Shown here: positions 3,934 through 36,750 of the stretch, in pieces
Numbering within the stretch: position 1 is the stretch's first letter
How the letters are laid out: every line of letters begins with the position of its first letter
NCBI GenBank assembly: GCA_964430885.1
Contig: CAYSHM010000026.1
Location: 1 to 46,505, forward strand
From: an uncultured archaeon
GTDB taxonomy: Archaea > Thermoplasmatota > Penumbrarchaeia > JASLWR01
DNA: 46,505 bases
Direction: 5' to 3'
Notes under the pieces: model-generated
What the model was told of the DNA's origin: nothing
Databases searched by the model: none
What the model saw: only the letters and a program-made list of their open reading frames with translations
Made by a program: the position numbers and the translations under genes

Positions 3934-6900
3934 ATGACAAGACCGAAAAATAAGAACCCTGCATTTAGAAGGCTGGCAATAATAGCTTTAGCCTTGATAA
4001 TGCTTATCGGAGGTCTCACAATGATAGTTTCGAACGAAACAAAGACCTCTGCCTTTGGGAAAAAAGCTGAAACCCTGATGGGATTTGAGCGGAGCAAAGG
4101 TACGAGAGCAGAGGAAGAAATAGCTGATTAGGTATTTGAGAACCCAAGCTTTGAGACTGGAAACTGGCAGGGATGGGAAATGGGGATACCCGGAGACACA
4201 TGTTGCTGCGGATCTAGAGTTACTACCGACCCTTATGGTTGGTGGCAGTATTACGGAAATGTTCCTGATGGCAACTATTGTGATGCTGGACCTTTTGACG
4301 GTTGCGGACCGGCCGAATATACTTTAGCCCAGGATGTCACTCTGCCAATGGGTGTCACAACTGTAGAATTTGATTGGGCTTATGATATCGATAACTGGGG
4401 CCAGCCAAGAGAAATGCGCGTTGATGTTGAACCAGTTGGCGGTGGACAGCCGCTTGAAAGATTCGTAGTTCAACAGATACAGGGCTCACAATGGAGTCAA
4501 TGGAGACATGATGTAGTTGACCTCAGTGGGTTCTTTGGTCAAACAGTAAGGATCAGTTTCGAATTTTATTGGCCCGAGTGTTACTCTGGCCCCGGATGTC
4601 ATGGTTTTGATAATGTTATATTGAAATACTTCGATGTTCCATTATATGAAGAAAGCTTCAGAACTGAACTTGACAATCCCGAATATCCCCCCTCAAATGC
4701 CTGGGATATATATTCCTCACAGGAGGAGGGGAAAAATGAAAGGGTGACCTTCTCACCGATACTTGCAGAAGTGAATCCGTTCACAAACCCGAGTTTCGAG
4801 ACCGGAAATACCAATGGCTGGATCGTGGACAATTCATGGCATGACTGGACAAACCAAAGGGTCTGGGGAGCCACCAGCAACAGCAATTGGAATTCTTATT
4901 TCGATACTGTTCCCGACGGTAATTACTATTACCATGTGGAAATGGACACGTGCTGTAACGAAAGGGATCGTCACTTTGCCATTGGTCAGGATATACAGCT
5001 GCCTGAGAACGCTGCAGAGATCCATTTCGATTATGGTTATTTTTTCGAAACATGCTGCGGATGGGGTGACCCATTCTATATAAGAGTGGACATAGAACCA
5101 TCCGGTGGAGGTAATCCTCTAGATTCGTTCATCCTGTATGAGAACAATTGGGATTCCTGGGGGTTGCACAAGGAAGATACTGCCAGTTTTGACGTCAGTA
5201 ATTTCGGAGGACAGGAGGTCAGAATTAATTTCAAGATAGTCGCCGACTGGTGGTTATATGTTTGGGGTCAATTCTCACTTGATAATTTCGTGCTGTATGA
5301 ACTTCAGGATCTGGGATTCCAGCCCTATGATGATGATCACTGCTGGAAGATGGAGAAGGACGAGACCAGGAACGGAGGTGCTAACCTCAATGAGATCACC
5401 CTTCACCTCGGACTTGTGGATGCTGGAAATGTGGAACTTTCTTTCGTGACACAGGCCTTCGGCGACGATCTTACACCCGACCCGCTCCCTGCTTCCTTTG
5501 AAGGGCATTCAAATGGAGACGGTGTTGCCATCAGCACTGACGGATTTACATGGTATACCATCTGGCAATATCAAGCCGGATTGAACGACTGGACCGAGAT
5601 CGGGCCTCTTGATATCAATGGGCTAATGGAAGCAAACGGAGGCGACATCTGCGAAACCCCCACTGATAGAGAAGATCTTTACATCAAATTCCAGCAGTAC
5701 GGTGATGGATTGATACCCGATAACGGAGGGATCGTATGGGACCTTATACATGTGGAAGGCGATGGTGACGGATGGTTCATATTCAATGTTCCCCGGATCG
5801 AGATAGATGCCACAGTAACTCCGGAATTACCTGAAATATTTGCCCAGAACCAAGGAGAACCGGATTTCTGCACAATGAAGGTCAACCTGACCACACATGG
5901 GGAAGCCGGAGAAACCGCAGCTGAAGAGGTTAGATTCACTTACACCAGACCTCAGGAACTTATTTTAGACGGAAACCCCTTGATCGAGGAGATCACATGG
6001 TCCTCTGCCGATGTACCGCCGCCCGGCGATCTGCTGGAAGCTGAGAACCATTTTGAATTGATTAACTCAGAGATCACAGCCGACGACAGCTATCTCGGGC
6101 CCCTTGGAATGTTTGACTATTCATACGAGGAATGGGACGGAGATTTTGTCAGTATCGAACAGAATGATCTAGGACTCCCTACCCTTAGGGTCATGTCCTT
6201 CGACCATGCTGAAATGTGGGGTGAATTCATCGCCAACAATGATGATCCAGGCAATATAATTTCCATGGAAGCCCTTGATGATTTCGGTCTGCCCATGCCC
6301 CCGCAGGATTTCGACAGCTGGGGCATCACCGGATTGGACGGAATAGATGTTGTGGTCGATAATGTCATTGATCCGGAAACAGGTCAGCCATTCCCACATA
6401 AAAAGAACGTGAAGATCACCGGCGGGGAGCCAGGAGACGAGGGAATCCTCACTGTCAGGCACGTTCCGGAAGATCAAACATTAGAATTTCCCATTGAATT
6501 GACCTGGGGAGAACCAACAGAAATTGATGCTTGGATGCAGGGATCCTACCAGTACGGACTTGAAGGCGTTCTTGTTGCATACATAAAGGATGAATGGGGT
6601 AATACTGTGGAGGATTATGCGGGTAGTTCACTTTATTTCCTTGACCTGCAGATACCCGATGGCGGTTCATTTGAGGTCACAGGGGATAACTTCGTGGAAT
6701 TCGACGGCGGCCAAAGAGGAGTGTGTACATTCTATATAACTCCCCGGGGTGACTGGTATGAAGAGCAGGGGGACCCTCCCTGGTATCCCGGATTCAGGCT
6801 GGCAAATACCTCTGGAAACATAGGACCCCAGCATATCTGGTTGGATGACATTATGACTGTTCACGCAGGACCGACCGTCGGGTTCCATATGGAAACAGCC

Positions 6901-7107: not shown

Positions 7108-8360
7108 TTCTACTTCAACAAGTCCGGCGGATGGTCAATCGGTGTCAAATCCGGTCTGAACTACGCTATAGCCGGCAGCCTCAATATCGATGTCATGCCC
7201 GGTGAACTGAACTACCTGGCACCGACACCTGATCCCAGCGCGATCGTGGATCCCAACATTGTGGCCGACGGCAGACTGCTGATACCTGTATCAGGGGACC
7301 ATGTTTTTGATGCTATAGGTTACGATGCTTTCGGCAATCTCATTGACGGTTTCGAGATCACCGATTGGGATGTCATCGACGATATCGGCGAGATCAGCGA
7401 GGGAGAATTCCATGCTCTGGCATACTTCTCCTTTGATGATAAGACCGGAGTGAAGGAGGGCGAATATATTTTCAAGGACGGTGCTGTGAGAGTTACGGGC
7501 GTCGGACCTCTGGGCGTTGAAGTGAGCCACGATATTCTCATAAGGGTATACAATCCACTGAACATCTGGCTCGTCCCCGATGAGATCGAACCCTCCGGAA
7601 TCCTTCTGGACCATCCACTTGAACTGAAGGTCCCTGTCCATTACTACACACCATACGAGAACTTCCCGGACAACCTCCAGCTCAAGATATCCGCATATAT
7701 CATAACTGATGTGGACAACAACCTCAACGCCATCGGCGGTGAGCACCTGATCTTCACCAGCGGAGCACCCAACACCACCTTCAGGCTCATCAATCTCAAC
7801 GAGCCGGGCAATGTAGGTATTGCCACCTATTCTTTCCTGATACCCTACGAGAGCATCGCAGGTGTGATCGACCATGATCAGGAGAACAAGGACAATACCA
7901 ACTGGCTCAAGGTTGTTATAGAGGATGTGCCCGGCGGCGGAGAGATGGGCGACTTCCAGTGGAATCTGGCTGATGATGAGTCCAAAACCGAACTCTATGC
8001 AGTATATGCACCGCCTCCCAGCGAGACCCCGTCATTCGCACCTGCAATGGCCATTATGGTGCTTGCTCTTCTCGGAGGAGCAGTTGTGGCCAATCTCTAC
8101 GCAAGCAGTGGAGATAAGAAGGGACGAAAGGACGAGGACGGTGTTTCACCGGTCATTGCTATAATTCTGATGGTGGCAATTACCATCGTCCTTGCCGGTG
8201 TTCTCTGGCTCTGGGTATCGGGACTTGTGGATACGCAGAAGAGCAACGATATCGAGTATGTTGATACTGCCTGGGAAAGCCCGACGCTTCAGAACGACTA
8301 CCAGCTCATCATCGAGAATGTGAAGGATAAAGAATTCTCGGTTGAAGACCTGGAGTTCTC
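7108..8360 (+). repeat. Near-identical direct repeat, copy 1 (copy 2 at +5040)
   Basis: By eye 7108-8237 is identical to 12148-13277, with one mismatch at 8238 and identity again to about 8360. The ORF track shows identical shadow ORFs (7291..7875 and 12331..12915; 7925..8164 and 12965..13204). Confidence 0.9.
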
Positions 8361-8628
8361 CCTTATGGACGGTAACAAGGTTGACAAAAGCATGGGTCAG
8401 CACAAGGTGACTGCCATCTACGGCAAGTCCATCGATAACGAAACAATAGTTTCCTTCCATGACGGGGACCATGACGGATATCTGTCTACGGGCGACCGGT
8501 TCATCATCAAGAGCGAGGACCATGTCAACTACGACGGAACTCCCGACCCCGGTGAGGCTAGAGCTGGATACTATTTCGCTTTGAAGACCAAGGACAACGA
8601 GCTCTTCGAGGTGCAGATCGAGCAGTAA
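8026..8628 (+). other. TPSF-TM sorting-like signal + internal class III signal peptide + archaeal type IV pilin (mature part 8143-8625)
   Basis: ETPSFAPAMAIMVLALLGGAVVANLY-ASSGDKKGRKDEDG/VSPVIAIILMVAITIVLAGVLWLWVSGL, closely resembling the Haloferax PilA-type H-domain ([22 protein letters not shown]); DGDHDGYLSTGD is a DxDxDG Ca-binding-like loop. Confidence 0.85.
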
Positions 8629-8885: not shown

Positions 8886-8979
8886 AGTAGTAAATTCTTA
8901 TTTATTCCTGCAAAGATTTTTAGGTCTTGTTTAGAAGTGCGGGAAAATAATCCATGATTTGAAACAAGGAGGAGAAACA

Positions 8980-11900
8980 GTGAAAGAAAAAAGGATGAAC
9001 ATATTTGGTAGAAATACCATATTGATTGTCATTATATCTCTGTTGATCATATCCGGATTCTCAATGGTCCTGGGTATGAAGTTCAACAATAGAGATATAA
9101 AGATCAAAGCATTGAATCCTGGAGATAGGTCTTCAGGGAAGAACACAGATGCAAGAGCCGATGATTGGCAAAGCATTTTTGCTGATGACTTCAGTGCAGG
9201 AGTGGGTGCCTGGACAACAGGCAATGAACCCATTACCGGGTCTGCACCTCAGTGCTGGGAGTGCTGCGGAAGCAGATCTTCAACATGGCAGTGGTACGCT
9301 AACAGGCATGGAGAAAGCGTTTACGGAAACCCCAATAACGGCAACATGGGTTCCGAGAACAGTTGGATCAAGACCGAAGAATTTACTGCAGGTTCCACCG
9401 GCGAACTGAAGGTGATATTCGATTCCTATTCCAACAATGAGGGCGGATTCCCTTGCTACTACGATGTTGAATGGGTTGAAATAACCACAAACGGAGGAGG
9501 TACTTGGACTCCGCTGCACGGCAACATGGGTGAACTCCACAATTACGGAGATAACACCTGGAGAAGAGGATTAACCATGCCCTATAATGTTGATCCTTAT
9601 GCAACATTCCAGATAAGGTGGAGATATGACACCTTTGATGGATGCTGCGGCCCAAATGATGGGTGGTGCATCGATAATGTTGACATCCAGGGAACTGGAC
9701 TTAGAATTGGTTTTTCCGAGACCTTCAAGAAGGATCTTTCGGATCCCGATTACTACGGTGGAAAGGCATGGTATACATATAGTAGTACTGATGAGGGGGT
9801 AAATGAGAGAGTAGTATTATCTCCAGTATTAGCAGAAGAAAACCCATTCACTAATCCGAGCTTTGAAACTGGAAATACCAATGGATGGGTCGTTGATAAT
9901 AGCTGGAATGATTGGAGCAACCAACGAGTTTGGGGTGGCACTAGCTCCAGCAATTACAATGCTTATTTCAACAGCATTCCTGATGGTAATTATTATTATT
10001 ATGTTGAAATGGACACCTGCTGTAATCCACAACCTAGATGGTACGGTATTGGTCAAGACATCCAGCTCCCTGAAAATGCCCATTCTATTGAATTCGATTA
10101 CAGTTATTATGTAGATTGGACATGCTGTCCCTACGGAGATCCTCTTGAAATAAGGGTTGACATAGAACCTGCTGGTGGAGGAAACCCGCTTGAAACCTTC
10201 ATACTTTATGAGACTGATTGGGACGTCAATATGCTTCATTCAGAAGGAGTATATGAAGTGGATATAAGTGCATATGCAGGGCAGGAGGTAAGGTTCAGCT
10301 TTGAATTTGATGCTTCTGATTGGTATTACGCTTTTTGGTGCCAGTTCGCTTTGGATAATTTCCTACTATATGTGACAGAAGATGTGGGATTCCTGGCTTA
10401 CGACGATATGTACTGCTGGAGAATGGACACCGGAGCTGAGACTAGAGATGGAGAGAACCTCAATGAACTTGTCGCTCATGTAGGTCTGCAAGACGTGGAC
10501 GTATGCAATCTCAAATTCGCAACCATGGCCTTCGGGAACGATCTTACACCCGATCCTATGCCCGCTTCATTCCAGGGACATCACGAATCGGATGGTATCG
10601 CAGTGTCAACCGATAATGAGACCTGGTACAGGCTGTGGCAGTACGAGAACGATCTAGATGATTGGGTGGAAAAAGGTCCATTTGATATCATTGCATTACT
10701 GGATGCTAACGGTGTGGAAACCTGCGACTCTCCGAGTACCAACGAGGATCTTTGGATCAAGTTCCAGCAGTATGACGACGGGGGAATCCCCGATTCGGGC
10801 ATTATATGGGATTTCTTGGATTGTGAAGCAAATGAGGACGCTGAAGGAATAACCCTTGATGTTCCCCGAATATGGGTGCACACGGAAGTATCACCTGATC
10901 CTCCTATATATTATGCTATGGACCAAGGTGATCCCGACTTGGGTACTGTGAACGTTACCCTTTTCGGCCTGGGAGATGAAGAAGAAGGAACTCCGGGGAC
11001 ATCAATAGATCTAGATTATACTCAAGCACCAGGGATTGTAGTGGACGGAACCCTTGATTGGTCAGCTCCAAGCATGGCTCCAGGAGATATCAATCTTGTA
11101 ACAGCAGATGTCACATCGATCCAGGGATTCCATGGTGACATCGGACCCATTGCACTTCAATACGAGGAATGGGATGGTGACATCTTCGAAACTGTTCTCG
11201 ATATGCCCATATTCAGAATAATGGCTTTCGAGTATGCAGAGATAGAGGGTTCAATAATCAAGAACAACGGTGCTGACCCAGGCGATCCTGGTTCTGAGAT
11301 TACACTGGTATCCTTCGATGATCAGGACCCCGCTCTAGAAATGCCCCAGCAGACATTCACCGATTGGACCCTTACAGGTCTTGACGACTGGTCCTTTGAG
11401 GACGTTATCGATCCCGAAACCGGTCAGCCCTTTCCCCACAAGAAGATAGTGAAGAGCACCGGAGGGGAGATCGGCGACGAGATAACTATCACCGCCATCC
11501 ATCAGCCTACAGAGATCCAGGTTTCATTCGATCTTGAACTCACAACTGGTCCCGCAACCACATTGGAACTTGTTCCGGCAGGCGCACTTCAGTATGGACT
11601 GGAGGGGGTTCTGGTTGTATATATTAAAGATGACTACGACAATGTCATCGAGGATTTCAGCGGCGAGACCATCTATTTCGTGGATATGCAGGAAGGGGAC
11701 GGCGGAGCATTCGATGTCACCGGTGATGATTTCCTCGTATTCGACGGCGGCCAAAGAGGAATGGGGACCTTCTACCTCACGCCCCGTGGAACCTGGTATG
11801 AAGAGCAGGGAGATCCTCCCTGGTATCCCGGTTTCAGACTTCAGAACACCACTGGAAACCCCGGCCCACAGGACCTTTGGCTTGAGGACATATTGACAGT

Positions 11901-21201: not shown

Positions 21202-21227
21202 GGGACCCTTCGGGGTCCCTTTTTTTT
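21202..21227 (+). terminator. Hairpin + T-tract terminator
   Basis: GGGACCC-TTCG-GGGTCCC followed by T8. Confidence 0.9.
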
Positions 21228-21247
21228 AAATTTTTTATTCTAACAAA

Positions 21248-21256
21248 TTATAAATA
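21248..21256 (+). promoter_or_regulatory. Candidate TATA box for paralog 4
   Basis: TTATAAATA preceded by ACAAA (BRE-like), about 85 nt before ATG 21342. Confidence 0.5.
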
Positions 21257-21341
21257 ATCCAGTGATTCTAGATATTTTACTCCGGCTGCTTTAAATGAAA
21301 GCTGAAGTGAAACAATCTGAAAAAGGAAAGGAGATACTAAC

Positions 21342-24300: not shown

Positions 24301-27300
24301 AGGAGGAAGAACGAGGTCCTTTCTGCTGGAGAATGGATAATTCCAATGGGCTTCGGGACAACAATCAGAATGAACTTATCCTTCATATCGGGCTTGATGC
24401 AGGTGAGGAAGGTGAAGTTACGGACCTTACCCTTGATTTCGCTTCAGAGATATATGGGAACTGCGATCCAATGCCCCCCATGTTCGATTCGGAAGACGAT
24501 GCACACTATGATGGTGTGGCTGTAAGTGTGAACGGCATGAGTTGGTACAAGGTCTGGTCGCCTCCAAACCCCGCAGGGTGGTACATGCATGAAGATTTCG
24601 ACCTTTTGGATATTCTACCAAATAACAGCGTTGACCCGCAAGAGGACCTGTATATTAAATTCATGCAGTATGGAAGCGGGGCCATCCCTGATGAAGGTAT
24701 GTTATGGGATGAGATCACCATTCGATCCAATGCTGAGGTGGAGTACATATTTGAGGTTCCCTCTTTGCATGTATCTATTGATACGGACCCTGAAGAACCC
24801 TTCAGAATATATGCTGAAGGCCAGGGTGAACCGGATGTGGCCAATGTTACTATAAACATTGATGGATTGGGTGGAGCTTTAGCAGAAAATACAAGGGCAG
24901 ACCCTATTATATATACCTTTAATAACTGTGGCGCCACAGGTTACCAGGGACCGAATCAGGGCCAAGCTAACTCGGAATACCAGGGAACCACTCTCGAAGG
25001 CCTTGTAAGTATTGCAAATTATGGTATTCAGGAGTTCACCGTACCTAAATCCGGTAGCTACACCATACGCGCAGCTGGAGGTCAGGGCGGGGGTACAAAT
25101 GATCATGGAGGCAAGGGTGCGATTATGCAGGGCGATTTTGAATTGGAAACTGGAGATGTCATCAAGATCGCTGTTGGTCAGATAGGCAATCATGACAGGG
25201 GCGATCCAAATCCCGGCGGTGGTGGCGGAACATTCGTAGTTGATCAAAACAATCAAGCCCTGGTAATATCTGGTGGTGGAGGCGGTGATTCCTCATGTGA
25301 TGGCAGATGCGGAACACATTATTACGGCGGCCCAGGTCTGATCACAACAAACGGAGGAAACGGGGCAGGTAGTGATGGTGGTTCAGGCGGCACTAATGGA
25401 CAGGGAGGAAATTCAGGAGGATGCCCGAACAGAGGAGCTGGAGGTGCAGGATTCTTAAGTGCAGGTCAAGACTGCTGCGGGAATATGCAAGGCGGATTCA
25501 CATGGCCGGATATGAGGGGAGGGCACAGAACCAGCGCGGGCTATACCCCTGGTTCTTTCGGAGGATTTGGAGGAGGAGGTCAGGGAGGACATTGCTGCGG
25601 AGGCGGATATGGGGGTGGCGGTGGTGGCTACAGCGGTGGTGGAGGTGGAGGTTATGCATCACCTAGATCTGCAGAAGGCGGTGGCGGTGGCTCAATCAAC
25701 AATGGTGAGAATCAGGTCAATGAAGAAGGCGGTAATTCCGGATACGGATTTGTTGAGATCACATTCCTCGGAGGTACAACACCGGCGGGTCAGGAGGTCA
25801 GGCTGACCTATGATAGAGCAGATGGTATCATCATAGATAACAATCCGTCCATCACACAGATCACCTGGTCCTCAGCAGATGTAAATCCTGAAGATGATGT
25901 TGTGTTTGTTGGTGACGAGTTCGATGTGAATTTCTCCATATCCAATCTAGAGGGATTTGCAGGAGAGATAGGAACATTCACCCTTCAGTATATATCCTGG
26001 GATAATGAATTGATCCAGATGGAACTAGAATCACCATACCTTAGAATTCAGGAGTTCGCCTTTGCTGAGTTCAGTGAGGATTCGGAGTTCATAGCAAATA
26101 AACACGGACCAAACCCGGAGGATGGAAATTTCATCACATTACTTTCATATGATGATCTGGAACCCCCCGGTGAGATGATACCTCAGCAATTCCACAACTG
26201 GCAGGTTGATTTCCCCACCGCGGACAGTTGGCAGCTTTTCGATACAGCCGAGAGCCATCAGAAATACCTCCATGTTGTCGGTGGTGAACCCGGAGATGAA
26301 GGTTCCATTTCAGTCACCCATGGTGCTGCCAGAGGAACTGGAGATACCTACGACTTCTCAATAACCCTGACATCAGGTCCAGCCACCACTGCTACCGTAA
26401 CACCTTTGGACACATACATGTACTCTATGACCGACATACTTACAGTAGCTGTTCAGGATGACTATGGAAATGAAGCTGTTGATTGGACCGGGAAGATGTA
26501 TATACGGCTGGATGCAGGTGAAGTGGATTTCTCAGAGGAAGTAGAGATCGAAGATGACGGAGGACCGTATGACGGGTGGCTTTATTACGAGTTTACCCAG
26601 GCTGACAGAGCACTCCATACCTTCTTTGTTACCCCATGGACATACATGGGTGATGGCGATACCATTATCCATTTTGAGACAGTTGCAGGTTTGAGTGCCG
26701 ATGTTTCCCTGAATGTAGATGCGGGACCTGTGTCTGATCTGGTGGTAGTGCCAGACTGGGATGAGATGGGTGTTACATCTAGAGATCCTGCTTATATTTA
26801 TGCTGGTGAAACATTGTACCTGGATGTATATGCAACTGATGCTGGTGGTCACGTGTCCACAAGCTATGAGGCACCAATCATCATGGAACATAATTCATCT
26901 GCGACCGGAGATCTTGAACCTGAACCCTGGCATACTGAATCATCAAATGTGATCATGCAGATGGAGAATGGATCAATTATTGCAGGTGACCAAACCACAG
27001 AATTCATATTCTTCCAGTCGACTATAGATCTAGACATTAGTGCAAAATCCGGAATAAATCATGCTGTCAATGGAAAACTTGATCTGGAGGTGAAACCTGG
27101 TCCATTAGCCGAACTAACACCAATACCTGATCCTTCCACTCTGAGTATTGAATATGCAGCAGACGGAAGAATATTGGTACCCGTCAGCGGAACACAGAAT
27201 TTCGATGTTGAGGCCTTCGATCAATGGGGTAATCCCATCACCGAGTTTGACATTACAGATCGGGATGCTGATGAGATCATAGGCATTATGGATGAGGACG

Positions 27301-28535
27301 AATTTCAGGCTGTGGACTATTTCAGTCTAGAAGATGATCCAGGGATTGAACCAGGTGAATACTCCTACATGGACGGAATGGTATATATCACTGCAGAAGA
27401 TACAGATGAGTTTCTTGAAGGCGAGGTCACTCTTGAGATACCTGTTAGAGTGTTCAACAGGTTGAACATATGGCTTGTGGAAGAAGAGATAGGTGCTACA
27501 GAGTTCCTTCTGGATACACCTTTCGAACTTAGAGTTCCAGTCCATTACAAGACTCCTGCTGCCTCATTCCCTGATAATCTGCAGCTTCTTGTCAAGTGTA
27601 CTATATACCATGAAGTTAACCTTCAGGGTGAGGAGCAGGGTGAAGGTCATGTGATCCACACTAGCGGTGCTCCCAACGGTACTTTCAGACTGCTATATCT
27701 GCATTCTGACCAGGAAGGAATAAGGGAGTATGGTGCAATGATACCTTTCGAGAGCATGGCATCAGCCCTGAACTTTGATACAGAAAACGCTGATACGATG
27801 AACTATCTGAAGGTAGAGATATTGGATGTACCCGGTGGAGCTGACATGGGTGATTTCCAGTGGAATGAAAGAGATGACTGGACCTTGACTGAGCTTCATG
27901 CGGTTGCAGCGCCTCCGGCTTCCGAAACACCTTCATTTGCACCGGGAATGGCCATAATGGTTCTAGCCCTCCTAGCAGGAGCGGTCATTGCCAGCCTCTA
28001 TTCCCGAAGCGATGATAAGGGACGGAAGAGTAAGAAGGACGATGACGGTGTTTCACCGGTTATCGCTATCATTCTCATGGTAGCCATAACCATCGTTCTT
28101 GCCGGTGTTCTCTGGCTGTGGGTGTCGGGACTTGTTGATACGCAGAAGAGCAACGATATCGAGTATGTTGATACCGCCTGGGAAGGTCCGACGCTTCAGA
28201 ACGATTACCAGCTCATCATCGAGAATGTTAAGGACAAGGAATTCTCGGTTGAGGACCTGGAGTTCTCCCTTATGGACGGGAACAAGGTCGATAAAAGCAT
28301 GGGTCAGCACAAGGTGACCGCCATCTATGGTAAATCTATAGACAACGAGACCATTGTTTCTTTCCATGACGGTGACCATGACGGATATCTGTCCACGGGT
28401 GATAGGTTCATCATCAAGAGCGAGGACCACGAGAACTATGACGGCAGTGCGGATCCAGGGGAAGCAAGGGCAGGATACTACTTTGCCCTGAAGACCAAGG
28501 ACAACGAGCTCTTCGAGGTTCAGATCGAGCAGTAA
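21342..28535 (+). CDS. Adhesin-pilin polyprotein paralog 4 (2397 aa) with four ALK/LTK-type glycine-rich domains
   Basis: Gly-rich domains at about 21645-22475, 22525-23315, 23475-24265 and 24905-25770; TPSF at 27927; KGRKSKKDDDG/VSPVIAIILM; mature pilin 28050-28532. Confidence 0.9.
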   Translation: MNMKKLILILAISALILTGLALLVGTLFESNNAENVTVEEVVFLPYQNEITADTQTMSYGMAAKFSDGSIGPMGSNLDTFVDDVNTEPETEYRTRDVPTRGEEIFEFSNCSATGRYGPSQGQVDNTYSGSTLEGSVVRIGNGIQQWEIPGSGQYVFEVAGAESGRDGYNQNTGNGAIMRGTFELDEGDVLKILVGQRGDFTGYCCGAAGGGGTFVTYSDNTPLIIAGGGGGYRADWGGLNSQYQQGTTEQNGQWAYWNGECGPGGTNGNGGGRGCGGCGGGGGGGLLTNGAGAGCCGGTAMSFLNGGVGGPQGGQGHGGFGGGGGTGCGGGGGGGGYSGGGSCDWGSAGGGGSYNDGEDQDNESGANSGHGYVTVTYTGGGTSSEYGNEYEEGSGESYVFNNCSQSGRYGPNQGQVNSEYAGSNLEGQVNVYTQGIQEWTVPETNTYIIETWGAKGGTSNRRSPGNGAYIQGEFDLTQGQVLKIVVGQMGIDHGDNGGGGGGSFVYTGSIGGGGLLIAAGGGGGAGYNSADGMPGVTTENGTGYQGNCGYQGGTNGYGGQGGYAGGGAGWKGDGGDPGGGDRFIGGSYYGGQGGFGGGGAGTNGDNGGGGAGGYSGGASGCDGGNGYGGGGGGSYNGGDNQSGSDGQNSSHGKVKITTPPVVIGVYYHETFSDPLFGNEASEFGTAWNRQSQLESGTNERAITDPGQIIVGQYTFTNCDTTGRFGPDQPQINTAYSGTSLEGFVTINTPGIQEWTVPQDGTYTMEAYGAQGGDTGQNYGGDPDYPGAKGAKMVGDFELNEGDELKILVGQKGEPTPGGNNYVRLSGGGGGTYVTLDDNTPLIVAGGGGGHYFNQSQGGHPGDASIGGNTNGGWGGNSGGGGGGLIGNGGDIRGGKSFVNGGEGGYSYRADWSGDGGFGGGGGAQHGSWGAGGGGYQGGDAASYRGYGGKSYNDGDNQDNTSGVNLDHGKVVITMYEDLPDPGFDAFEEEERGPFCWRMDNSNGLRDNNQNELILHIGLDAGEEGEVTDLTLDFASEIYGNCDPMPPMFDSEDDAHYDGVAVSVNGMSWYKVWSPPNPAGWYMHEDFDLLDILPNNSVDPQEDLYIKFMQYGSGAIPDEGMLWDEITIRSNAEVEYIFEVPSLHVSIDTDPEEPFRIYAEGQGEPDVANVTINIDGLGGALAENTRADPIIYTFNNCGATGYQGPNQGQANSEYQGTTLEGLVSIANYGIQEFTVPKSGSYTIRAAGGQGGGTNDHGGKGAIMQGDFELETGDVIKIAVGQIGNHDRGDPNPGGGGGTFVVDQNNQALVISGGGGGDSSCDGRCGTHYYGGPGLITTNGGNGAGSDGGSGGTNGQGGNSGGCPNRGAGGAGFLSAGQDCCGNMQGGFTWPDMRGGHRTSAGYTPGSFGGFGGGGQGGHCCGGGYGGGGGGYSGGGGGGYASPRSAEGGGGGSINNGENQVNEEGGNSGYGFVEITFLGGTTPAGQEVRLTYDRADGIIIDNNPSITQITWSSADVNPEDDVVFVGDEFDVNFSISNLEGFAGEIGTFTLQYISWDNELIQMELESPYLRIQEFAFAEFSEDSEFIANKHGPNPEDGNFITLLSYDDLEPPGEMIPQQFHNWQVDFPTADSWQLFDTAESHQKYLHVVGGEPGDEGSISVTHGAARGTGDTYDFSITLTSGPATTATVTPLDTYMYSMTDILTVAVQDDYGNEAVDWTGKMYIRLDAGEVDFSEEVEIEDDGGPYDGWLYYEFTQADRALHTFFVTPWTYMGDGDTIIHFETVAGLSADVSLNVDAGPVSDLVVVPDWDEMGVTSRDPAYIYAGETLYLDVYATDAGGHVSTSYEAPIIMEHNSSATGDLEPEPWHTESSNVIMQMENGSIIAGDQTTEFIFFQSTIDLDISAKSGINHAVNGKLDLEVKPGPLAELTPIPDPSTLSIEYAADGRILVPVSGTQNFDVEAFDQWGNPITEFDITDRDADEIIGIMDEDEFQAVDYFSLEDDPGIEPGEYSYMDGMVYITAEDTDEFLEGEVTLEIPVRVFNRLNIWLVEEEIGATEFLLDTPFELRVPVHYKTPAASFPDNLQLLVKCTIYHEVNLQGEEQGEGHVIHTSGAPNGTFRLLYLHSDQEGIREYGAMIPFESMASALNFDTENADTMNYLKVEILDVPGGADMGDFQWNERDDWTLTELHAVAAPPASETPSFAPGMAIMVLALLAGAVIASLYSRSDDKGRKSKKDDDGVSPVIAIILMVAITIVLAGVLWLWVSGLVDTQKSNDIEYVDTAWEGPTLQNDYQLIIENVKDKEFSVEDLEFSLMDGNKVDKSMGQHKVTAIYGKSIDNETIVSFHDGDHDGYLSTGDRFIIKSEDHENYDGSADPGEARAGYYFALKTKDNELFEVQIEQ

Positions 28536-28584
28536 TGTACATCTGGAATCTCTATTTTTGATTTCTTGCTAGATAATTCCGAAC

Positions 28585-28613
28585 GGGTCCTTTGGGACCC
28601 TATTTTTTTTTTT
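28585..28613 (+). terminator. Hairpin + T-tract terminator
   Basis: GGGTCC-TTTG-GGACCC then TA and T11. Confidence 0.85.
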
Positions 28614-28615
28614 CT

Positions 28616-28632
28616 AGAAAACTTTTTTATAC
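28616..28632 (+). promoter_or_regulatory. Candidate BRE-TATA for paralog 5
   Basis: AGAAAA-C-TTTTTTATAC about 63 nt before ATG 28695; SD GGAGTGA at 28681-28687. Confidence 0.6.
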
Positions 28633-28694
28633 GTTAGCTTAGCTCATTATTTCTCTGAATTTAAATAAAAATATCAGATAGGAGTGATGAAATA

Positions 28695-31600
28695 ATGGTA
28701 GAAGGAGATACGAATAGACTGAAAAAAATAATCCTGATAGTCGCTATTAGTGCTTTGGTCCTTACTGGGATCGCAGTATTGATAGGAACAGTATTTGAAT
28801 GGGATAATTCCCGAAATATAACAGTGGAAAATGTTGTATATCTTCCCAATATGAACGAGGTTAATTCAGAAACCGATACAATGAGCTACGGAGCGGCAGT
28901 CCAATACTCCGACGGGTCCATAAGCTCTCTTGGGTACTCATTGGAGAGGATCAAGAACAGTGACAAGGAATCCTCGGATGAAAAAATTGAATTGGATGGT
29001 GAATCAACAAGAGCGGTTCCCAATGAGGGTGATTCATGGGATTTCTCATATACGGGTTCAGCCCAGGAATGGGAAATACCTGCCAATGGCATCTATAAAC
29101 TAGAGGTTTGGGGCGCAGAAGGGGGATCCACGAACTATGCTGCTGGTAAGGGAGGTTACGCCTGTGGTGATTACGAGTTCATCAATGTTGATTCGATTTT
29201 TGTTTATGTAGGTGAAAAAGGAACTACCATTCCAGGCTGCGACACCACTGGAGGAGGCGGTTGGAACGGCGGTGGTGACGGTTCAACATGGAATTGCGGT
29301 GAACACTACGGAGGCGGAGGTGGAGGTACGGACATAAGAAATGAAGGGGGAAACTGGGATAGCCAGCTGGGTTTGGATTCCAGAATAATTGTCGCGGGTG
29401 GTGGCGGCGGTGCAACCAATAACGGTAACTGTACTGGTGGTGCAGGTGGAGGTCTTACAGGTGGTAATGCAGGAGGCAACTATGGGGCGGGAATCGGAGG
29501 AACCCAGAACAATGGAGGCCAGAACAATGGAACATTCGGTAAAGGCGGTTCCTGTAATAACACTTGGAGCATGGGTTGGGTAGGCGGCGGTGGCGGTGGA
29601 TGGTACGGAGGAGGACACGGCAACGCCCATGGAGGCGGTGGTGGCGGTTCGTCTTACTACGGTGATCTAGAAAATTCTGGTACGCAGAGCGGTCAGAATT
29701 CAGGGCACGGGAAAGCAAAGATTACTCTTATAGAACTCGGTTCAGGAGGACCATCAGATTATGGAAATGAATATGAAGAGGGAAGTGGAGAATCCTATGT
29801 TTTCACCAATTGCAGTCAATCGGGAAGATATGGGCCAAACCAGGGACAGGTTAATTCGGAATATGCCGGTTCAAACCTTGCAGGTCTGGTAAACGTATAT
29901 ACCCAAGGAATTCAGGAATGGACCGTTCCTGAAACCAACACTTACATTATAGAATCCTGGGGAGCTAGAGGTGGAGCGGGACAGAATAGAAGTGCAGGCA
30001 ATGGAGCCTATATCAAAGGTGAATTCGATCTCACCCAGGGTCAGGTATTGAAGATCGTTGTAGGACAGATGGGATCTCCAGGGTCCAACGGAGGAGGAGG
30101 TGGTGGTTCATATGTTTACACCGGTTCAATTGGAGGAGGAGGTCTTCAAATAGCCGCTGGCGGGGGCGGCGGTGGAGGGTATAATTCAGCCGACGGTCTT
30201 CATGGAGCGATTACCGAAAATGGATCGGGTTATCCCTATAATTGCGGATATAACGGCGGGACAAATGGATACGGAGGACAGGGCGGCGCTGCAGGTGGAG
30301 GAGCCGGATGGAAGGGAAACGGCAGTGGTCCTGGAGGAGGATCGAGATTTATTGGAGGTAGTTATAATGGAGGACCGGGCGGATTCGGCGGCGGTGGTGC
30401 TGGAACCTATTCCGATAATGGTGGTGGTGGAGCTGGAGGCTACTCCGGAGGTGCATGCGGATGCGACGGCGGTAATGGATACGGTGGAGGTGGAGGCGGG
30501 TCCTTTAACGACGGTGACAATCAATCTGGTACTGAAGGACAGAACAGTGACCATGGTAAGGTCAAGATCACAACGCCTCCAGTCATTATTGGAGTATATT
30601 ATCATGAAACCTTTTCAGACCCCCTATTTGGTGAGAATGCTACTGAATTCGGTCCTGCCTGGGGAAGGGACAGCCAGCTTGAGACTGGAACCAATGAGAG
30701 AGCAATTACCGATCCGGGGCAGATCATTGTTGAACAGTATACATTTTCCAATTGCGGTTCTACTGGCAGGTACGGTCCGAATCAATCAGATGCCAACTCT
30801 GAATACAGCGGAACCAGCCTTGGTGGTGAAGTTACCATCAGCACTCAGGGTATACAGAAGTGGGTAGTTCCCGCGGATAATACTTATACAATAGAGGTAT
30901 GGGGTGCTTCATCCGAACCCCAGACACATAATTATTCCTCTTACACTGGGAGATATGGTCGAGGGGCCCGCATGCAGGGTGATTTCGAACTCAATGAGGG
31001 CGACACGCTGCAGATATTAGTTGGACAAAAACCCATTCAGAATAATTTCAACGGCGGTGGCGGAGGTACGTTCGTGGCTATAGGTCAATCCCATGCCAGC
31101 GCAGATCCTCTGATCATAGCCGGCGGTGGTGCATCATACCGTGTAGGGTACAATTATAACGGTGATTGGCAGACCATGATAGATGGAACTACAGATGAAT
31201 CCGGAAATGATGCTTATGGTAATGGAGGAGACAACGGGAACGGCGGATACTCCAATGCCTGCGATGGCCCCGGAGCGGGGTTCCTCACTGATGCCCAGGG
31301 TGGATGCTACACCCGTGCAAAGGCATTCCGGAACGGCGGAGTTGGTGGTGAATACAATACCAATGGCGGACAGAACGGAGGTTTCGGAGGAGGAGGACAC
31401 GGTGGCTGGGGTGGGTCCGGTGGCGGTGGAGGTTATTCCGGAGGCGGTGCAGGTTACAACAATCCTTTCCCTCCTTCAGGAGGTGGAGGTTCATATAATG
31501 AAGGTGACAACCAGGACAATGACGGAGGTGTGAACACCGGCCACGGAATGGTCACGATCACCCTTTACGAAGATCTTCCAGATCCCGGATTCGATGCCTT

Positions 31601-34600
31601 TGAAGAAGAAGATCGAGGACCCTACTGCTGGAGAATGGATAATTCCAATGGGCTCAGGGACAACAACCAGAACGAACTGATCCTCCATATAGGGCTTGAT
31701 GCTGGTGAGGAAGGGGAAGTCACAGATCTGACCCTGGATTTCGCTTCAGAGATATATGGGAACTGCGATCCAATGCCCCCCATGTTCGATTCCGAAGACG
31801 ATGCGCATTTTGACGGTTTGGCAGTAAGTGTGAATGGTATAAACTGGTACAAAGTTTGGTCGCCACCGAACTCTGCAGAGTGGTACTTGCATGAAAATTT
31901 CGATCTATTGGATATACTGCCCAATAACAGCGTGGATCCCCAAGAGGATCTTTATTTAAAATTTATGCAGTATGGAAGCGGAGCTATCCCTGACGAAGGT
32001 ATGCTATGGGATGAGGTCACTCTAAGATCCAATGCCGAGGTAGAGTTCCTTTTCGAGGTTCCCTCCCTGCATGTATCTATGGATACCGATCCGGAAGATC
32101 CTTTCAGAATATATGCCGAAGGACAGGGTGAACCGGACGAGGCAAATGTGACAATAAATATAGATGGATTGGGCGGTGCTTATTTTGGAGATACAAGGGC
32201 AGATCCCATTTTTTATGAGTTCACGAACTGTAATAAGACAGGAAGGGAAGGTCCTAATCAATCCCAAGTGAATAATTCATACACCGGAACCACCCTTGAA
32301 GGGACGGTAACCTCCAACAACGGAATACAGACCTGGACTGTCCCTGACGGCGGTTTATATTTGATCGAGACCTGGGGTGCTCAGGGAGGACAGAAAAATG
32401 GAAATCCCAATGGAGGAAAAGGAGCGAGATTACAAGGTGAATTTGAACTTGAAGAGGGTGACCAGATCAGCATAATGGTTGGGCAGATTGGAGGCTGCAA
32501 TGCGCCATGGGGCGGTGGTGGAGGTGGCGGAACCTTCGTTGTCAACAACAATGATCTTCTGATAGCTGCTGGTGGAGGAGGAGGCATCGATACTACTAGT
32601 AATGATGTAGATGCAACGCATAATGAACAAGCCTTTGACGGGTTTTCTTACTGTGGGAACTGTGCTGCCAGAGCCGGTTCACCGGGTCATGGTGGTACCA
32701 CTGATTCAGGTCATATGCAGTGTGCCGGAGCGGGAGCGGGATGGCTCTCTGATGGTGCAGATGCGTATAGTAACTGTGGAAGCGCAACCGGAGGAGACTG
32801 TTTTTCGAATGGCGGTCGAGGAGGATGGGGCAGTTGTTATCACGGACAAAACGGACGGCATGAGGGCGGATTCGGCGGTGGAGGAGGAGGAGGCTGTGGA
32901 GGTGCAGGTGGCGGCGGAGGTTATACAGGAGGCGGTGGTTCCTGGGGCGACGGGAATGGAGGAGGTGGAGGTTCGTTCAATAGTGGAGAAAACACCGAAG
33001 GAGAGAGCGGTGTTCAGGAAGGTCATGGAAAGGCGGTATTGACGTATATGGGTGGTGGAGATCCCGCTGCAACAGAAGTGCGTCTTACCTACAATAGAGC
33101 CAATGGGATAGTTATTGATAACGATCCTGGTATCACAGAAATATCATGGTCCTCAGCTGATGTCAACCCTGAAGATGATGCTGTTTTTATTGGTGACGAA
33201 TTCGAAGTGAATTTCTCCATATCCAATCCTGAAGGTTTTGCAGGAGAGATAGGCACGTTCACACTTGAGTACGTATCCTGGGATAACGATCTGGTCCAAA
33301 TGGAATTGGAATCACCATACCTTCGGATCCAGGAATTCTCTCATGCTGATTTCAGTGAGGATTCCATGTTCATAGCCAATAATCACGGGCAGATACCGGG
33401 TCAGGAGAACCTTATCACCCTGGCATCCTACGATGATCTACAGCCTCCCGGCGAGATGATACCCCAGGAATTCCATAACTGGATACTGGACTTCCCGACT
33501 GTGGATGATGTATGGCTTGAAGATACACCTGAAAGTCATCAGAAATATCTGCATATCGAAGGTGGGGAACCGGGTGATGAAGGTACCATCACCGTTACCC
33601 ACGGCGCTGCTAGGGGAACGGGTGATACCTTTGTTCTGCCGATAACCCTGACATCAGGTCCTGCCAGCGCGGCCACGGTTACAGCTTTGGATACATATAT
33701 GTACAGTATGACAGACATACTCACCGTAGCAGTTGAGGATAACTTCGGCAATTCAGCAGTAGACTGGACAGGAAATATGTATATCCGTCTTGACGCTGGT
33801 GAAGTCGATTTCTCGGCTGAGGTTGAAGTAGAGGACGACGGTGGTCCCTACGACGGCTGGCTATACTATGAGTTCACACCGGCTGACATGGCGCTGCATA
33901 CTTTCTTCATCACCCCGTGGACATACATGGGGGACGGCGATACCATAATCCATTTCGAGACAGTTGGAGGACTAAGCGCCGATATTTCGTTGGATGTGGA
34001 TGCAGGGCCGGTCCATCACCTTCTGGTCACACCGGACTGGGATGAGATGGGTGTTGCACCGAGACCCGAGAACTACATCTATGCAGGCGAGACCCTTTAT
34101 CTTGACGTCCAGGCGGTTGACATGGGCGACCATGTGTCAACCACGTACACTGCGCCCATAATTGCTGAACATAATTCTCCTGCAACGGGTGAACTGGAAC
34201 CTGAACCCTGGCAGGCAGAAGCATCTACTATCACCCTTGAGATGATAGACGGGTTGATAACCGGAGCCGACCAGTTGACTGAGTTCGTATTCTATCAGGC
34301 CACGGAGAACCTGGAGATCAGCATGAAGTCAGGCATCAATCATGCCGTGAACGGCAGGCTAGATCTGGAGGTCAGGGCCGGGCCGTTGGCAGAGCTGACG
34401 CCTATACCTGATCCATCTACCATGGATGCTCTGCATGGGGCCGACGGTCATCTTCTGATCCCTGTAAGCGGGACTCAATTCTTCGATGTTCTGGCCTTTG
34501 ACGAATGGAGTAATCCTGTTGCGGAGTTCGATATCACAGATTGGGATGCTGATGAAATTATCGGTATGATGGACGAGGCTGAATTCCAGGCAGTGGACTA

Positions 34601-35813
34601 CTTCAGTCTACTGGATAATCCAGGAATCAAAGAAGGTGAGTATTCCTACATGGATGGAATGGTCTATATCACAGCTGAGGACACTGATGAGTTCCTTGAG
34701 GGCGAGGTCACCCTGCAGATACCCGTTAGAGTGTTCAACAGGCTGAATGTCTGGCTTGTGGATGAGGAGATAGGGGCCACCGAGTTCCTTCTGGACACGC
34801 CCTTCGAACTCCGGCTGCCAGTCCATTACAAGACTCCGGCTGCCTCTTTCCCTGACAACCTGCAGCTCTTGGTCAAATGCTCGGTATATCATGAGGTCAA
34901 CATTCAGGGTGAACCTCAGGGTGAAGAGCATGTGATCCATACCAGCGGAGCCCCCAACGGAACCTTCCGCCTTCTATATCTGCATTCGGACCAGGAAGGA
35001 GTGAAGGAATACGGGGCTCTCATACCCTTTGAGAGCATGGCAAATGCCCTGAACTACGATAATGAGAACGGAGATAACTTGAACTACCTCAAGGTCGAGA
35101 TAATCGATATTGCCGGTGGTGCTGATATGAGTGACTTCCAGTGGAATGCTGATGATGATTCGGTACTGATCGAGCTCCATGCAGTAGCAGCCCCGCCTGC
35201 ATCAGAGACTCCGTCCTTTGCACCTGCAATGGCCATAATGGTATTAGCTCTACTAGGTGGAGCCGTCATCTCCACTCTGTATTCCCATGGAAAGGAAAAG
35301 GGACGCAAGAGAAAGGACGAGGACGGTGTATCACCGGTCATTGCTATCATCCTTATGGTGGCCATAACCATCGTTCTTGCCGGTGTTCTCTGGCTCTGGG
35401 TATCGGGACTTGTAGATACGCAGAAGAGCAACGATATCGAGTATGTTGATACTGCCTGGGAAAGCCCGACTCTTCAGAACGACTACCAGCTCATCATCGA
35501 GAACGTGAAGGACAAAGAATTCTCTGTTGAAGACCTGGAGTTCTCACTAATGGACGGGAACAAAGTGGACAAAAGCATGGGTCAGCATAAGGTGACCGCA
35601 ATCTACGGCAAATCCATCGACAACGAAACCATTGTTTCCTTCCATGACGGGGACCATGACGGATATCTGTCTACTGGCGACCGGTTCATCATCAAGAGCG
35701 AGGACCACGAGGACTATGACGGCAGTGCGGATCCAGGTGAAGCTAGGGCAGGATACTACTTCGCTCTGAAGACCAAGGACAACGAGCTGTTCGAGGTGCA
35801 GATAGAGCAATAG
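28695..35813 (+). CDS. Adhesin-pilin polyprotein paralog 5 (2372 aa) with four ALK/LTK-type glycine-rich domains
   Basis: Gly-rich domains at about 29030-29735, 29790-30575, 30735-31570 and 32210-33050; TPSF at 35208; mature pilin 35328-35810. Confidence 0.9.
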   Translation: MVEGDTNRLKKIILIVAISALVLTGIAVLIGTVFEWDNSRNITVENVVYLPNMNEVNSETDTMSYGAAVQYSDGSISSLGYSLERIKNSDKESSDEKIELDGESTRAVPNEGDSWDFSYTGSAQEWEIPANGIYKLEVWGAEGGSTNYAAGKGGYACGDYEFINVDSIFVYVGEKGTTIPGCDTTGGGGWNGGGDGSTWNCGEHYGGGGGGTDIRNEGGNWDSQLGLDSRIIVAGGGGGATNNGNCTGGAGGGLTGGNAGGNYGAGIGGTQNNGGQNNGTFGKGGSCNNTWSMGWVGGGGGGWYGGGHGNAHGGGGGGSSYYGDLENSGTQSGQNSGHGKAKITLIELGSGGPSDYGNEYEEGSGESYVFTNCSQSGRYGPNQGQVNSEYAGSNLAGLVNVYTQGIQEWTVPETNTYIIESWGARGGAGQNRSAGNGAYIKGEFDLTQGQVLKIVVGQMGSPGSNGGGGGGSYVYTGSIGGGGLQIAAGGGGGGGYNSADGLHGAITENGSGYPYNCGYNGGTNGYGGQGGAAGGGAGWKGNGSGPGGGSRFIGGSYNGGPGGFGGGGAGTYSDNGGGGAGGYSGGACGCDGGNGYGGGGGGSFNDGDNQSGTEGQNSDHGKVKITTPPVIIGVYYHETFSDPLFGENATEFGPAWGRDSQLETGTNERAITDPGQIIVEQYTFSNCGSTGRYGPNQSDANSEYSGTSLGGEVTISTQGIQKWVVPADNTYTIEVWGASSEPQTHNYSSYTGRYGRGARMQGDFELNEGDTLQILVGQKPIQNNFNGGGGGTFVAIGQSHASADPLIIAGGGASYRVGYNYNGDWQTMIDGTTDESGNDAYGNGGDNGNGGYSNACDGPGAGFLTDAQGGCYTRAKAFRNGGVGGEYNTNGGQNGGFGGGGHGGWGGSGGGGGYSGGGAGYNNPFPPSGGGGSYNEGDNQDNDGGVNTGHGMVTITLYEDLPDPGFDAFEEEDRGPYCWRMDNSNGLRDNNQNELILHIGLDAGEEGEVTDLTLDFASEIYGNCDPMPPMFDSEDDAHFDGLAVSVNGINWYKVWSPPNSAEWYLHENFDLLDILPNNSVDPQEDLYLKFMQYGSGAIPDEGMLWDEVTLRSNAEVEFLFEVPSLHVSMDTDPEDPFRIYAEGQGEPDEANVTINIDGLGGAYFGDTRADPIFYEFTNCNKTGREGPNQSQVNNSYTGTTLEGTVTSNNGIQTWTVPDGGLYLIETWGAQGGQKNGNPNGGKGARLQGEFELEEGDQISIMVGQIGGCNAPWGGGGGGGTFVVNNNDLLIAAGGGGGIDTTSNDVDATHNEQAFDGFSYCGNCAARAGSPGHGGTTDSGHMQCAGAGAGWLSDGADAYSNCGSATGGDCFSNGGRGGWGSCYHGQNGRHEGGFGGGGGGGCGGAGGGGGYTGGGGSWGDGNGGGGGSFNSGENTEGESGVQEGHGKAVLTYMGGGDPAATEVRLTYNRANGIVIDNDPGITEISWSSADVNPEDDAVFIGDEFEVNFSISNPEGFAGEIGTFTLEYVSWDNDLVQMELESPYLRIQEFSHADFSEDSMFIANNHGQIPGQENLITLASYDDLQPPGEMIPQEFHNWILDFPTVDDVWLEDTPESHQKYLHIEGGEPGDEGTITVTHGAARGTGDTFVLPITLTSGPASAATVTALDTYMYSMTDILTVAVEDNFGNSAVDWTGNMYIRLDAGEVDFSAEVEVEDDGGPYDGWLYYEFTPADMALHTFFITPWTYMGDGDTIIHFETVGGLSADISLDVDAGPVHHLLVTPDWDEMGVAPRPENYIYAGETLYLDVQAVDMGDHVSTTYTAPIIAEHNSPATGELEPEPWQAEASTITLEMIDGLITGADQLTEFVFYQATENLEISMKSGINHAVNGRLDLEVRAGPLAELTPIPDPSTMDALHGADGHLLIPVSGTQFFDVLAFDEWSNPVAEFDITDWDADEIIGMMDEAEFQAVDYFSLLDNPGIKEGEYSYMDGMVYITAEDTDEFLEGEVTLQIPVRVFNRLNVWLVDEEIGATEFLLDTPFELRLPVHYKTPAASFPDNLQLLVKCSVYHEVNIQGEPQGEEHVIHTSGAPNGTFRLLYLHSDQEGVKEYGALIPFESMANALNYDNENGDNLNYLKVEIIDIAGGADMSDFQWNADDDSVLIELHAVAAPPASETPSFAPAMAIMVLALLGGAVISTLYSHGKEKGRKRKDEDGVSPVIAIILMVAITIVLAGVLWLWVSGLVDTQKSNDIEYVDTAWESPTLQNDYQLIIENVKDKEFSVEDLEFSLMDGNKVDKSMGQHKVTAIYGKSIDNETIVSFHDGDHDGYLSTGDRFIIKSEDHEDYDGSADPGEARAGYYFALKTKDNELFEVQIEQ

Positions 35814-36739: not shown

Positions 36740-36750
36740 GAGACATTCCC

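Follow-up and report, generated by a model that had tools for sequence, protein, structure and literature searches.

Why should five very large, apparently surface-exposed proteins of an uncultured archaeon each end, without an intervening stop codon, in what looks like a complete type IV pilin? The question is raised by an array of five tandem genes on the contig C26 of 46,505 nucleotides (nt), analysed over its whole length and referred to here as the window, from a genome of the Thermoplasmatota (GenBank assembly GCA_964430885.1, designated G000; 3.13 Mb in 44 contigs, 91.6% complete). On balance, we lean towards the view that each gene encodes a polyprotein, which would be cut into an anchored giant protein and a mature pilin.

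The five open reading frames (ORFs) lie on the + strand, encode 1482–2412 residues, and occupy positions 4180–35813 (Table 1). Their translations close in the same manner. PP(P/A)SETPSFAP is followed by a hydrophobic helix of ~20 residues, termed TM1 (TM, transmembrane), a K/R-rich linker of 13–18 residues and then (D/E)(D/E)G/VSPVIAIILMVAIT, where the slash marks the predicted class III cleavage site. Beyond the glycine, the sequence reads VSPVIAIILMVAITIVLAGVLWLWVSGLV and continues for ~130 more residues. A first-pass annotation of this DNA had described five paralogs that run through an anchor directly into an internal class III signal and a pilin, and this description was borne out: every frame is free of stops across the junction, the first valine codons of the pilins fall exactly where that annotation had put them (pilin rows of Table 1), and all tails are 161 residues long. 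The predicted site is found at residues 1321–2251 of the precursors and not at the N-terminal position that is typical of archaeal pilins.

In genes 2–5, the N-terminus is a basic stretch followed by a hydrophobic signal-anchor. The claim that all five polyproteins are complete from 3934 onward holds for these four genes only. A signal-anchor segment does begin with the ATG at 3934, but it is parted from the remainder of gene 1 by an in-frame TAG at 4129–4131. Given that TAG is also the terminator of genes 3 and 5, and thus an ordinary stop, gene 1 is interrupted as assembled, being either broken or truncated. Read from 4180, where the frame is open, gene 1 has no N-terminal hydrophobic segment, unlike the other four. 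Its pilin module is intact and identical in protein sequence to the pilin of a copy elsewhere in the genome (C15a).

Profile searches matched the tail to archaeal pilins. At the internal site, Pilin_N (PF07790) scored 36.2 bits in gene 1 (P0001) and 34.5 bits in gene 3 (P0003) against a curated cut-off of 25.2, and TIGR02537 (arch_flag_Nterm) scored 37.7 and 37.6 bits, respectively, against a cut-off of 20. With an isolated module of 215 residues, the corresponding values were 38.7 and 41.3 bits. A profile of the module matched solved archaeal pilin chains, the best being 8fj5 (E = 2.5e-13), Natrinema PilA2 8gi2 (6.7e-13) and 9myg (8.1e-13), with weaker matches to 8rey, 8fk7 and Iho670; the family-model match foreseen for the last 161 residues, and profile matches to solved chains, were therefore obtained. 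When the module was compared with 1.84 billion representative proteins, 643 matches were returned at E ≤ 0.001. Small proteins of 150–180 residues align with the pilin part from their own residues 2–9, and the free homologues P0026 (177 residues, 57% identity over query 46–212) and P0027 (40%) matched from residues 6–8. Judged by these family-model, solved-chain and small-protein matches, the 161-residue tail is homologous to ordinary prepilins along its whole length. As expected of a pilin signal, residue -1 is G in all ten copies of the genome and a hydrophobic helix follows.

Those ten copies were found by a six-frame pattern scan of the genome, which returned ten giant ORFs with the fused end: five in the window, two on contig C15, and one each on C2, C37 and C1, the last being cut off by the contig end. 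The same scan returned two ordinary prepilins (C10 and C3) and a 1718-residue ORF on C6, and a Pilin_N scan of the genome, with 14 matches, agreed. No free copy of the fused pilin was found by the Pilin_N scan or by a search with the module in this 91.6%-complete genome. In other assemblies, seven proteins of 1816–2655 residues carry the module at 53–55% identity with the site A/VSPVIAIIL, behind heads that vary between glycine-rich ALK/LTK-GRD-like repeats, Kelch and BNR. Remoter fusions (30–40% identity, up to 4539 residues) keep P(S/G/A)FxP, the TM helix, a charged linker and (G/A)/VSPV. Large proteins with an internal pilin helix, as had been anticipated, thus exist in other genomes. Among 37 genomes of the class examined, the full module was present in frames of >1000 residues in G000, G003, G005 and G007, representing three families. 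The ten ORFs of the genome, their recurrence in other assemblies and an independent contig that bridges the gene 4 junction (see below) argue that the fusion is not due to chance.

Both halves also occur alone. In G002, from the same family but a sister genus, there are three tandem ordinary prepilins. One, of 187 residues and reading ...NESG/VSPVIAIILMVAITIVLAGVLWLWVSD..., is the counterpart of the fused pilin, and another is the counterpart of the C10 pilin of G000. Inspection of the ORF list and translations, with no family scan, revealed no ORFs of pilB or pilC size beside these free pilins. A homologous giant protein on C34 of G002 stops after the anchor (...SPSFSP-TM-RRRRR), and one on C2 of G005 (1530 residues), in tandem with a fused paralog, ends ...TPSFSP-TM-RRQED. 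Within G000, 22 other ORFs end in PGF (19), PEF (1) or PSF (2) followed by a TM helix and K/R, a count reached after 3 of 25 rows (one duplicate, one Fe-S-like ORF and one low-complexity ORF) had been discarded. Since both halves occur alone, the fusion can be regarded as a complete anchored surface protein joined to a complete prepilin. The leaders of the free prepilins align with the fusion linker; by alignment, the basic tail of the anchor and the prepilin leader are one and the same stretch.

The anchor has the tripartite form of a PGF-CTERM-type signal, consisting of PSFAP, a helix of 19–22 residues and a K/R-rich stretch. In the fusions, it is not at the extreme C-terminus, as 161 residues follow; in the unfused homologues, it is. 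The designation “sortase-type” reflects both the P(S/G)F-TM-basic pattern and the existence of homologues that end there. Hydropathy analysis (Kyte-Doolittle, window 19, threshold 1.6) of 17 full-length proteins gave exactly three hydrophobic segments in 16, P0001 being without the first. The N-terminal flank is positively charged. The flank preceding TM1 is mostly negative or neutral (-4 to +2; each of the five window genes has -2), and that following TM1 is positive (+1 to +7, and at least +4 in 12 of 17). From the hydropathy and the flank charges, we infer that the linker is in the cytoplasm, with the giant part and the globular domain of the pilin outside, in keeping with the three-TM topology originally suggested. 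Class III signal peptidases such as PibD and FlaK cut on the cytoplasmic side.

Conservation of the predicted cut site was assessed in the top 150 representatives with a pattern that left residue -1 free. Sites at residue 35 or beyond with an upstream TM helix were classed as fused (29 representatives) and 100 were N-terminal; 19 of the 150 gave no pattern match and two internal sites (P0052 and P0147) had no TM call, and these were left out. Residue -1 was G or A in all 29 fused and all 100 N-terminal representatives. D or E occupied -2 in 17 of 29 fused compared with 67 of 100 N-terminal sequences, and -3 in 21 of 29 compared with 61 of 100. A P(S/G/A/T)F-like motif precedes TM1 in 26 of the 29 fused representatives.

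Internal translation initiation was considered as another route to a separate prepilin and was rejected in G000, where the linker contains no in-frame ATG, GTG or TTG in any of the nine complete paralogs and the first valine is encoded by GTT or GTA. In the relatives P0014, P0015 and P0017, a methionine stands directly after TM1 (MYSGRRRKK..., MSRRRKKGRGK...). Initiation at this residue, which may occur in these proteins, would yield a textbook prepilin.

The nine complete paralogs differ sharply in divergence along their length. Over the last 161 codons, the pilin shows 98.4% amino acid identity, with a nonsynonymous divergence (dN) of 0.009, a synonymous divergence (dS) of 0.68 and a dN/dS of 0.013. 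The anchor and linker (40 codons) show 73% identity and a dN/dS of 0.14, and two 200-codon stretches of the upstream stalk show 64 and 56% identity with dN/dS values of 0.17 and 0.22. At the DNA level, the paralogs are ~90% identical over the last ~480 nt and ~60% identical upstream. The pilin has taken up many silent changes and almost no replacements since it was homogenised, as expected if all ten products have to be one and the same protein, for example as interchangeable subunits of a filament. A quick maximum-likelihood tree was calculated from 127 mature pilin segments (33 fused and 94 free), 27 of 154 identifiers having been left out with no pattern match or <110 residues after the site; 15 of its 119 inner branches are starred. 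The fused state requires only 7 changes on this tree, compared with a shuffled mean of 29, and the starred branches force at least two changes. It fills several deep clades, and the free P0026 and P0027 are sister to the window clade (99, starred).

The 1718-residue ORF on C6 (139990–145143, - strand; L038) adjoins pilC- and pilB-type genes. A TM helix and a basic stretch precede each of its two internal sites, which read ...KNG/VSPVIGTILMVAIT... and ...DQKA/VSSVVGTIMVV..., and it scored 78.1 bits with Pilin_N and near the cut-off with DUF7266. In G005, a member of another family, both C6-type junctions lie in open frames (L046 and L051), one as ...RTA/VSNVIGAILVF... and the other, in a 5'-open frame, as ...RRRQRRRR...DEDA/VSPIVGTLLLVAIT.... 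The C6 ORF would encode a three-part polyprotein.

The enzymes and machinery that such a scheme calls for were predicted to be encoded elsewhere in the genome, and homologues of each were located. A direct search with PF01478 gave no match at E ≤ 0.001 (best E = 0.08). This model is weak in the relatives too, where 12 of 21 genomes matched at E ≤ 0.001 and 4 of 21 exceeded the cut-off, and the absence of a prepilin peptidase was accordingly rejected as a conclusion. A profile built from the ORFs of four relatives identified a divergent homologue, C5:80403–81545 (- strand, L037), with E = 3.2e-93, and the ORF of the same-family relative, itself a weak PF01478 hit, matched this C5 ORF with E = 4.8e-125. 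The C5 product scored 49.5 bits with Arc_PepC_II (cut-off 29.9) and matched FlaK_Arch with E = 1.2e-15. It carries ...MDIRTRKV... and ...GGADAKG..., and all eight homologues compared share D26 and G209-G-A-D212-x-K214. The prepilin peptidases of the class (L037 and, in relatives, L029–L036) are recognised by Arc_PepC_II and mostly fall under the PF01478 cut-off, so standard scans would call them absent. Five T2SSE matches (ATPases) and seven T2SSF matches (platforms) represent pilB/pilC-type pilus machinery. A single gene of the exosortase/archaeosortase family (TIGR04178, 57.8 bits, cut-off 23) is located within C4:150481–154137 (locus L027), at 1435–2403 of that locus and between two VWA-domain genes, the upstream one of which ends PEF-TM-RRRIKD.

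The following scheme is compatible with these data. The precursor would cross the membrane three times: the signal-anchor, the giant part outside, TM1 leading inward, a basic cytoplasmic loop of 13–18 residues, and the pilin helix leading outward again. The class III signal peptidase homologue at C5:80403–81545 would then cut after the invariant G or A before VSPV, freeing the mature pilin of 161 residues for one of the type IV pilus machineries of the genome. The giant protein would thereby acquire a tripartite C-terminus of PGF-CTERM-like form, on which the only archaeosortase-family enzyme of the genome may act. The halves would come apart whichever side of TM1 was cut. The sequences establish the fused build and its conservation, the kinship of both halves with stand-alone genes, the pattern of selection and the enzyme inventory; the proteolytic steps, the 1:1 yield proposed in the first-pass annotation, filament formation and the choice of machinery are inferences. 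A wider picture, which we put forward tentatively and with less than even confidence, is that a clade of marine Thermoplasmatota makes its pilin only as the tail of a giant precursor, that the class III signal peptidase serves as a polyprotein protease at internal sites, that one cut gives rise both to the N-terminus of the mature pilin and to a free PGF-CTERM-like end that licenses anchoring by archaeosortase, that pilus and adhesin coat would hence be produced in fixed proportion, and that, as the unrelated C6 polyprotein in a pilus operon of this genome suggests, the lineage uses this mode of biogenesis generally.

Support for the assembled sequence was sought in public sequencing runs. Those with a matching stretch were marine and seawater metagenomes, and contigs of two marine DNA runs (X1 and X2), possibly from the source sample, cover the stretch. 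One such contig, 24461–28112, bridges the anchor-to-pilin junction of gene 4 by 62 nt. The summed depth is 34–74 over the pilin modules compared with 12–21 nearby (3–5 times the flanks), and contigs break at the modules (20669–21335, 28006–28672 and 35343–35990). Both effects are the expected behaviour of a ten-copy repeat, which fragments assemblies; the fused genes of relatives are likewise found at contig ends (L041, L043 and L044). In one study, two seawater metatranscriptome runs yielded short RNA contigs that fall on genes 3–5 with 0–1 differences. One of them falls on the pilin part of gene 5 and, among the pieces listed, none bridges a junction. Such contigs do not show starts or ends, DNA carry-over is possible and uncovered parts are uninformative; they are at most a hint that genes 3–5 are transcribed.

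Several points weigh against cleavage of the precursor. It is deduced from sequence, and access of the peptidase to a leader tethered by TM1 is an assumption; to our knowledge, the class III signals that have been tested were not tethered in this way. The C5 homologue scores 57.7 bits with FlaK_Arch against an equivalog cut-off of 330, and 14.2 bits with PF01478 against 26.5. The best subtype of the archaeosortase-family gene is ArtC at 82.4 bits, compared with a cut-off of 100. Residue -2 is mostly acidic, unlike the K/R that characterised archaeal prepilin peptidases prefer at this position, although the free pilins of the lineage are likewise acidic. Family-model scans of the window detected no pilus machinery genes adjoining the array. 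A 54-residue piece of the anchor matched no family, and neither a PGF-CTERM, a PEF-CTERM nor any other CTERM model, at E ≤ 10, so the match to these models that the first-pass annotation had proposed to look for was not obtained. Given that plain PGF tails of the genome were also below threshold (Loki-CTERM, 14.8 and 18.1 bits compared with 19.9), this non-match was rejected as evidence against an anchor; the CTERM models may have no coverage of this lineage. Finally, the dS of the stalk is >1.3, with many pairs saturated, and that of the pilin lies below it, which implies some past gene conversion or homogenisation of the pilin. Pure gene conversion was rejected as the sole cause of its identity because a dS of 0.68 accompanies a dN of 0.009.

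Should the precursor remain uncut, TM1 and the pilin helix would form a permanent two-helix hairpin anchor, and the outer domain would decorate the surface or attach the giant protein to the platform of the pilus, for example as a last, basal, non-extractable subunit. The charge pattern fits a hairpin, a tethered leader is without experimental precedent in the literature searched, and the lack of adjoining machinery genes sits easily with this possibility. Bacterial modular pilins are also reported to keep bulky modules attached to the pilin module (10.1101/2021.01.27.428410). A mere anchor, however, has no need for G/A to be kept at -1 in all 29 fused representatives or for a dN/dS of 0.013 across the 131-residue globular part, and TM1 by itself suffices for the homologous giant proteins. 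Moreover, the module has been interchangeable in evolution with ordinary prepilins, and an N-terminal extension of the core helix should clash with packing in a filament of type IV architecture. We consider a permanently uncut precursor, the chief alternative to cleavage, rather unlikely.

Still less probable, in our estimation, is that the halves are separated but the pilin-like protein forms no pilus. It would then be a membrane-bound or pseudopilus-type partner, such as a scaffold on which the giant proteins are held or by which they are exported, or archaeosortase alone would separate the halves at PSF. Class III signals do occur on archaeal surface proteins that form no filament, the sugar-binding proteins of Sulfolobales being an example. 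Separation would need no more than a cut on one side or the other of TM1, and the fact of fusion is an argument that giant protein and pilin are functionally linked. By contrast, the best solved matches are Pilin_N-type chains from entries with 20 chains or named as pilin, ten near-identical copies point to a need for interchangeable filament subunits, and nothing in the analysis points to a scaffold. The in-frame TAG of gene 1 would fit with chimeric assembly, with a stop or recoding site that was overlooked, or with pseudogenes, and the contig breaks and raised depth at the pilin modules might be read in the same way. Artefact or decay is nonetheless very improbable, given ten copies that keep an open frame at ~10% synonymous-site divergence, the same fusion in independent assemblies from several sources, a public-run contig across the gene 4 junction and strong purifying selection.

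The precursor that we propose to be cut combines features of known systems. Archaeal type IV pilins and archaellins, which are processed by PibD, FlaK or EppA, have the same hydrophobic helix, G/A at -1, VSPV(I/V) start and small globular domain, together with the same peptidase, ATPase and platform genes at the level of the genome. In the fusions, however, the signal lies 1300–2250 residues inside the protein and behind another TM helix, the cytoplasmic tail of which serves as the leader. With PGF-CTERM and PEF-CTERM proteins and their archaeosortases (ArtA and ArtC), the fusions share P(S/G)F, a TM helix and a basic cluster, but their signal is not C-terminal, matches no CTERM model and mostly has PSF instead of PGF, and its processing is putative. 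The modular type IV pilins, exemplified by Streptococcus sanguinis PilB, also combine a pilin module and a bulky adhesion-type module in one polypeptide; in PilB, the pilin module and signal are reported to be N-terminal and the protein to sit in the pilus in one piece, whereas the order is reversed in the fusions and a second TM helix lies between the modules. Autotransporters and viral or cellular polyproteins offer an analogy only, in that one precursor is proteolysed into a passenger and a membrane module or into several proteins. There is no homology to these, and in the proposed scheme the cutting falls to the class III signal peptidase, at a site inside the protein. Full-text literature searches yielded no description of internal class III signals or of pilin-tailed giant proteins, in agreement with the initial impression that the architecture is undescribed. 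The available text of two surveys of archaeal type IV systems (PMC13705601 and PMC4858521) does not mention the fusion, although their supplementary tables could list such proteins, and that of a report on marine group II archaea, in which a DUF1628 gene is expressed at a high level (PMC5069720), does not mention it either.

The array is flanked by genes of other kinds. Upstream, 226–3537 (- strand) encodes a 1103-residue protein that combines CarboxypepD_reg/PEGA domains with double zinc ribbons at its C-terminus. Directly downstream, 35984–39774 (+ strand) encodes a LolD/MacB-type ABC ATPase (251 residues) and a 1014-residue FtsX/MacB_PCD permease; ORFs of this size were not seen beside the fused genes of relatives (L041–L043), as judged on ORF sizes alone with no family scan. 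Further along, 44222–45001 (- strand) encodes a 259-residue protein with a BMC shell domain (37.1 bits, cut-off 24.5), unusual for an archaeon, and a weak HxlR-like stretch.

Table 1. Positions of the five fused genes and their parts in the window
Feature	Position	Strand	Description
Gene 1, 5' piece	3934–4131	+	ATG, basic stretch, hydrophobic signal-anchor (MTRPKNKNPAFRRLAIIALALIMLIGGLTMIV...), TAG at 4129–4131; in frame with 4180–8628
Gene 1 (P0001)	4180–8628	+	1482 residues from ATG at 4180; giant surface protein, anchor, pilin
Gene 1 anchor and linker	8029–8142	+	38 residues; PSFAP, TM1, basic linker ending DEDG
Gene 1 pilin module	8143–8625	+	161 residues; VSPVIAIIL start
Gene 2 (P0002)	8959–13668	+	Giant surface protein, anchor, pilin; likely start ATG 8995
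Gene 2 anchor and linker	13069–13182	+	38 residues
Gene 2 pilin module	13183–13665	+	161 residues
Gene 3 (P0003)	13912–21150	+	2412 residues; N-terminal signal-anchor, glycine-rich ALK/LTK-GRD-like repeats, conserved stalk, anchor, pilin
Gene 3 anchor and linker	20551–20664	+	38 residues
Gene 3 pilin module	20665–21147	+	161 residues
Gene 4 (P0004)	21342–28535	+	2397 residues; built like gene 3
Gene 4 anchor and linker	27930–28049	+	40 residues
Gene 4 pilin module	28050–28532	+	161 residues
Gene 5 (P0005)	28695–35813	+	2372 residues; built like gene 3
Gene 5 anchor and linker	35211–35327	+	39 residues
Gene 5 pilin module	35328–35810	+	161 residues

Pilus subunits that are cut off a much larger protein would appear to represent a route not described before. 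Class III signals are treated as strictly N-terminal, and pilin finders and surveys of type IV filaments look for them there; a whole class of pilin genes is therefore invisible to such approaches. If the precursors are cut, prepilin peptidases would be polyprotein-processing enzymes that act on tethered substrates, their substrate rules would change, and the array would offer a testable case of three systems (Sec, class III peptidase and archaeosortase) operating on one precursor. If they are not, the fusion would be a new way to tie a large adhesin to the pilus machinery. Either way, the architecture accounts for the breaks that assemblies of these genomes show at the fused loci, and it ties the pili of uncultivated marine archaea to their very large and variable surface proteins.

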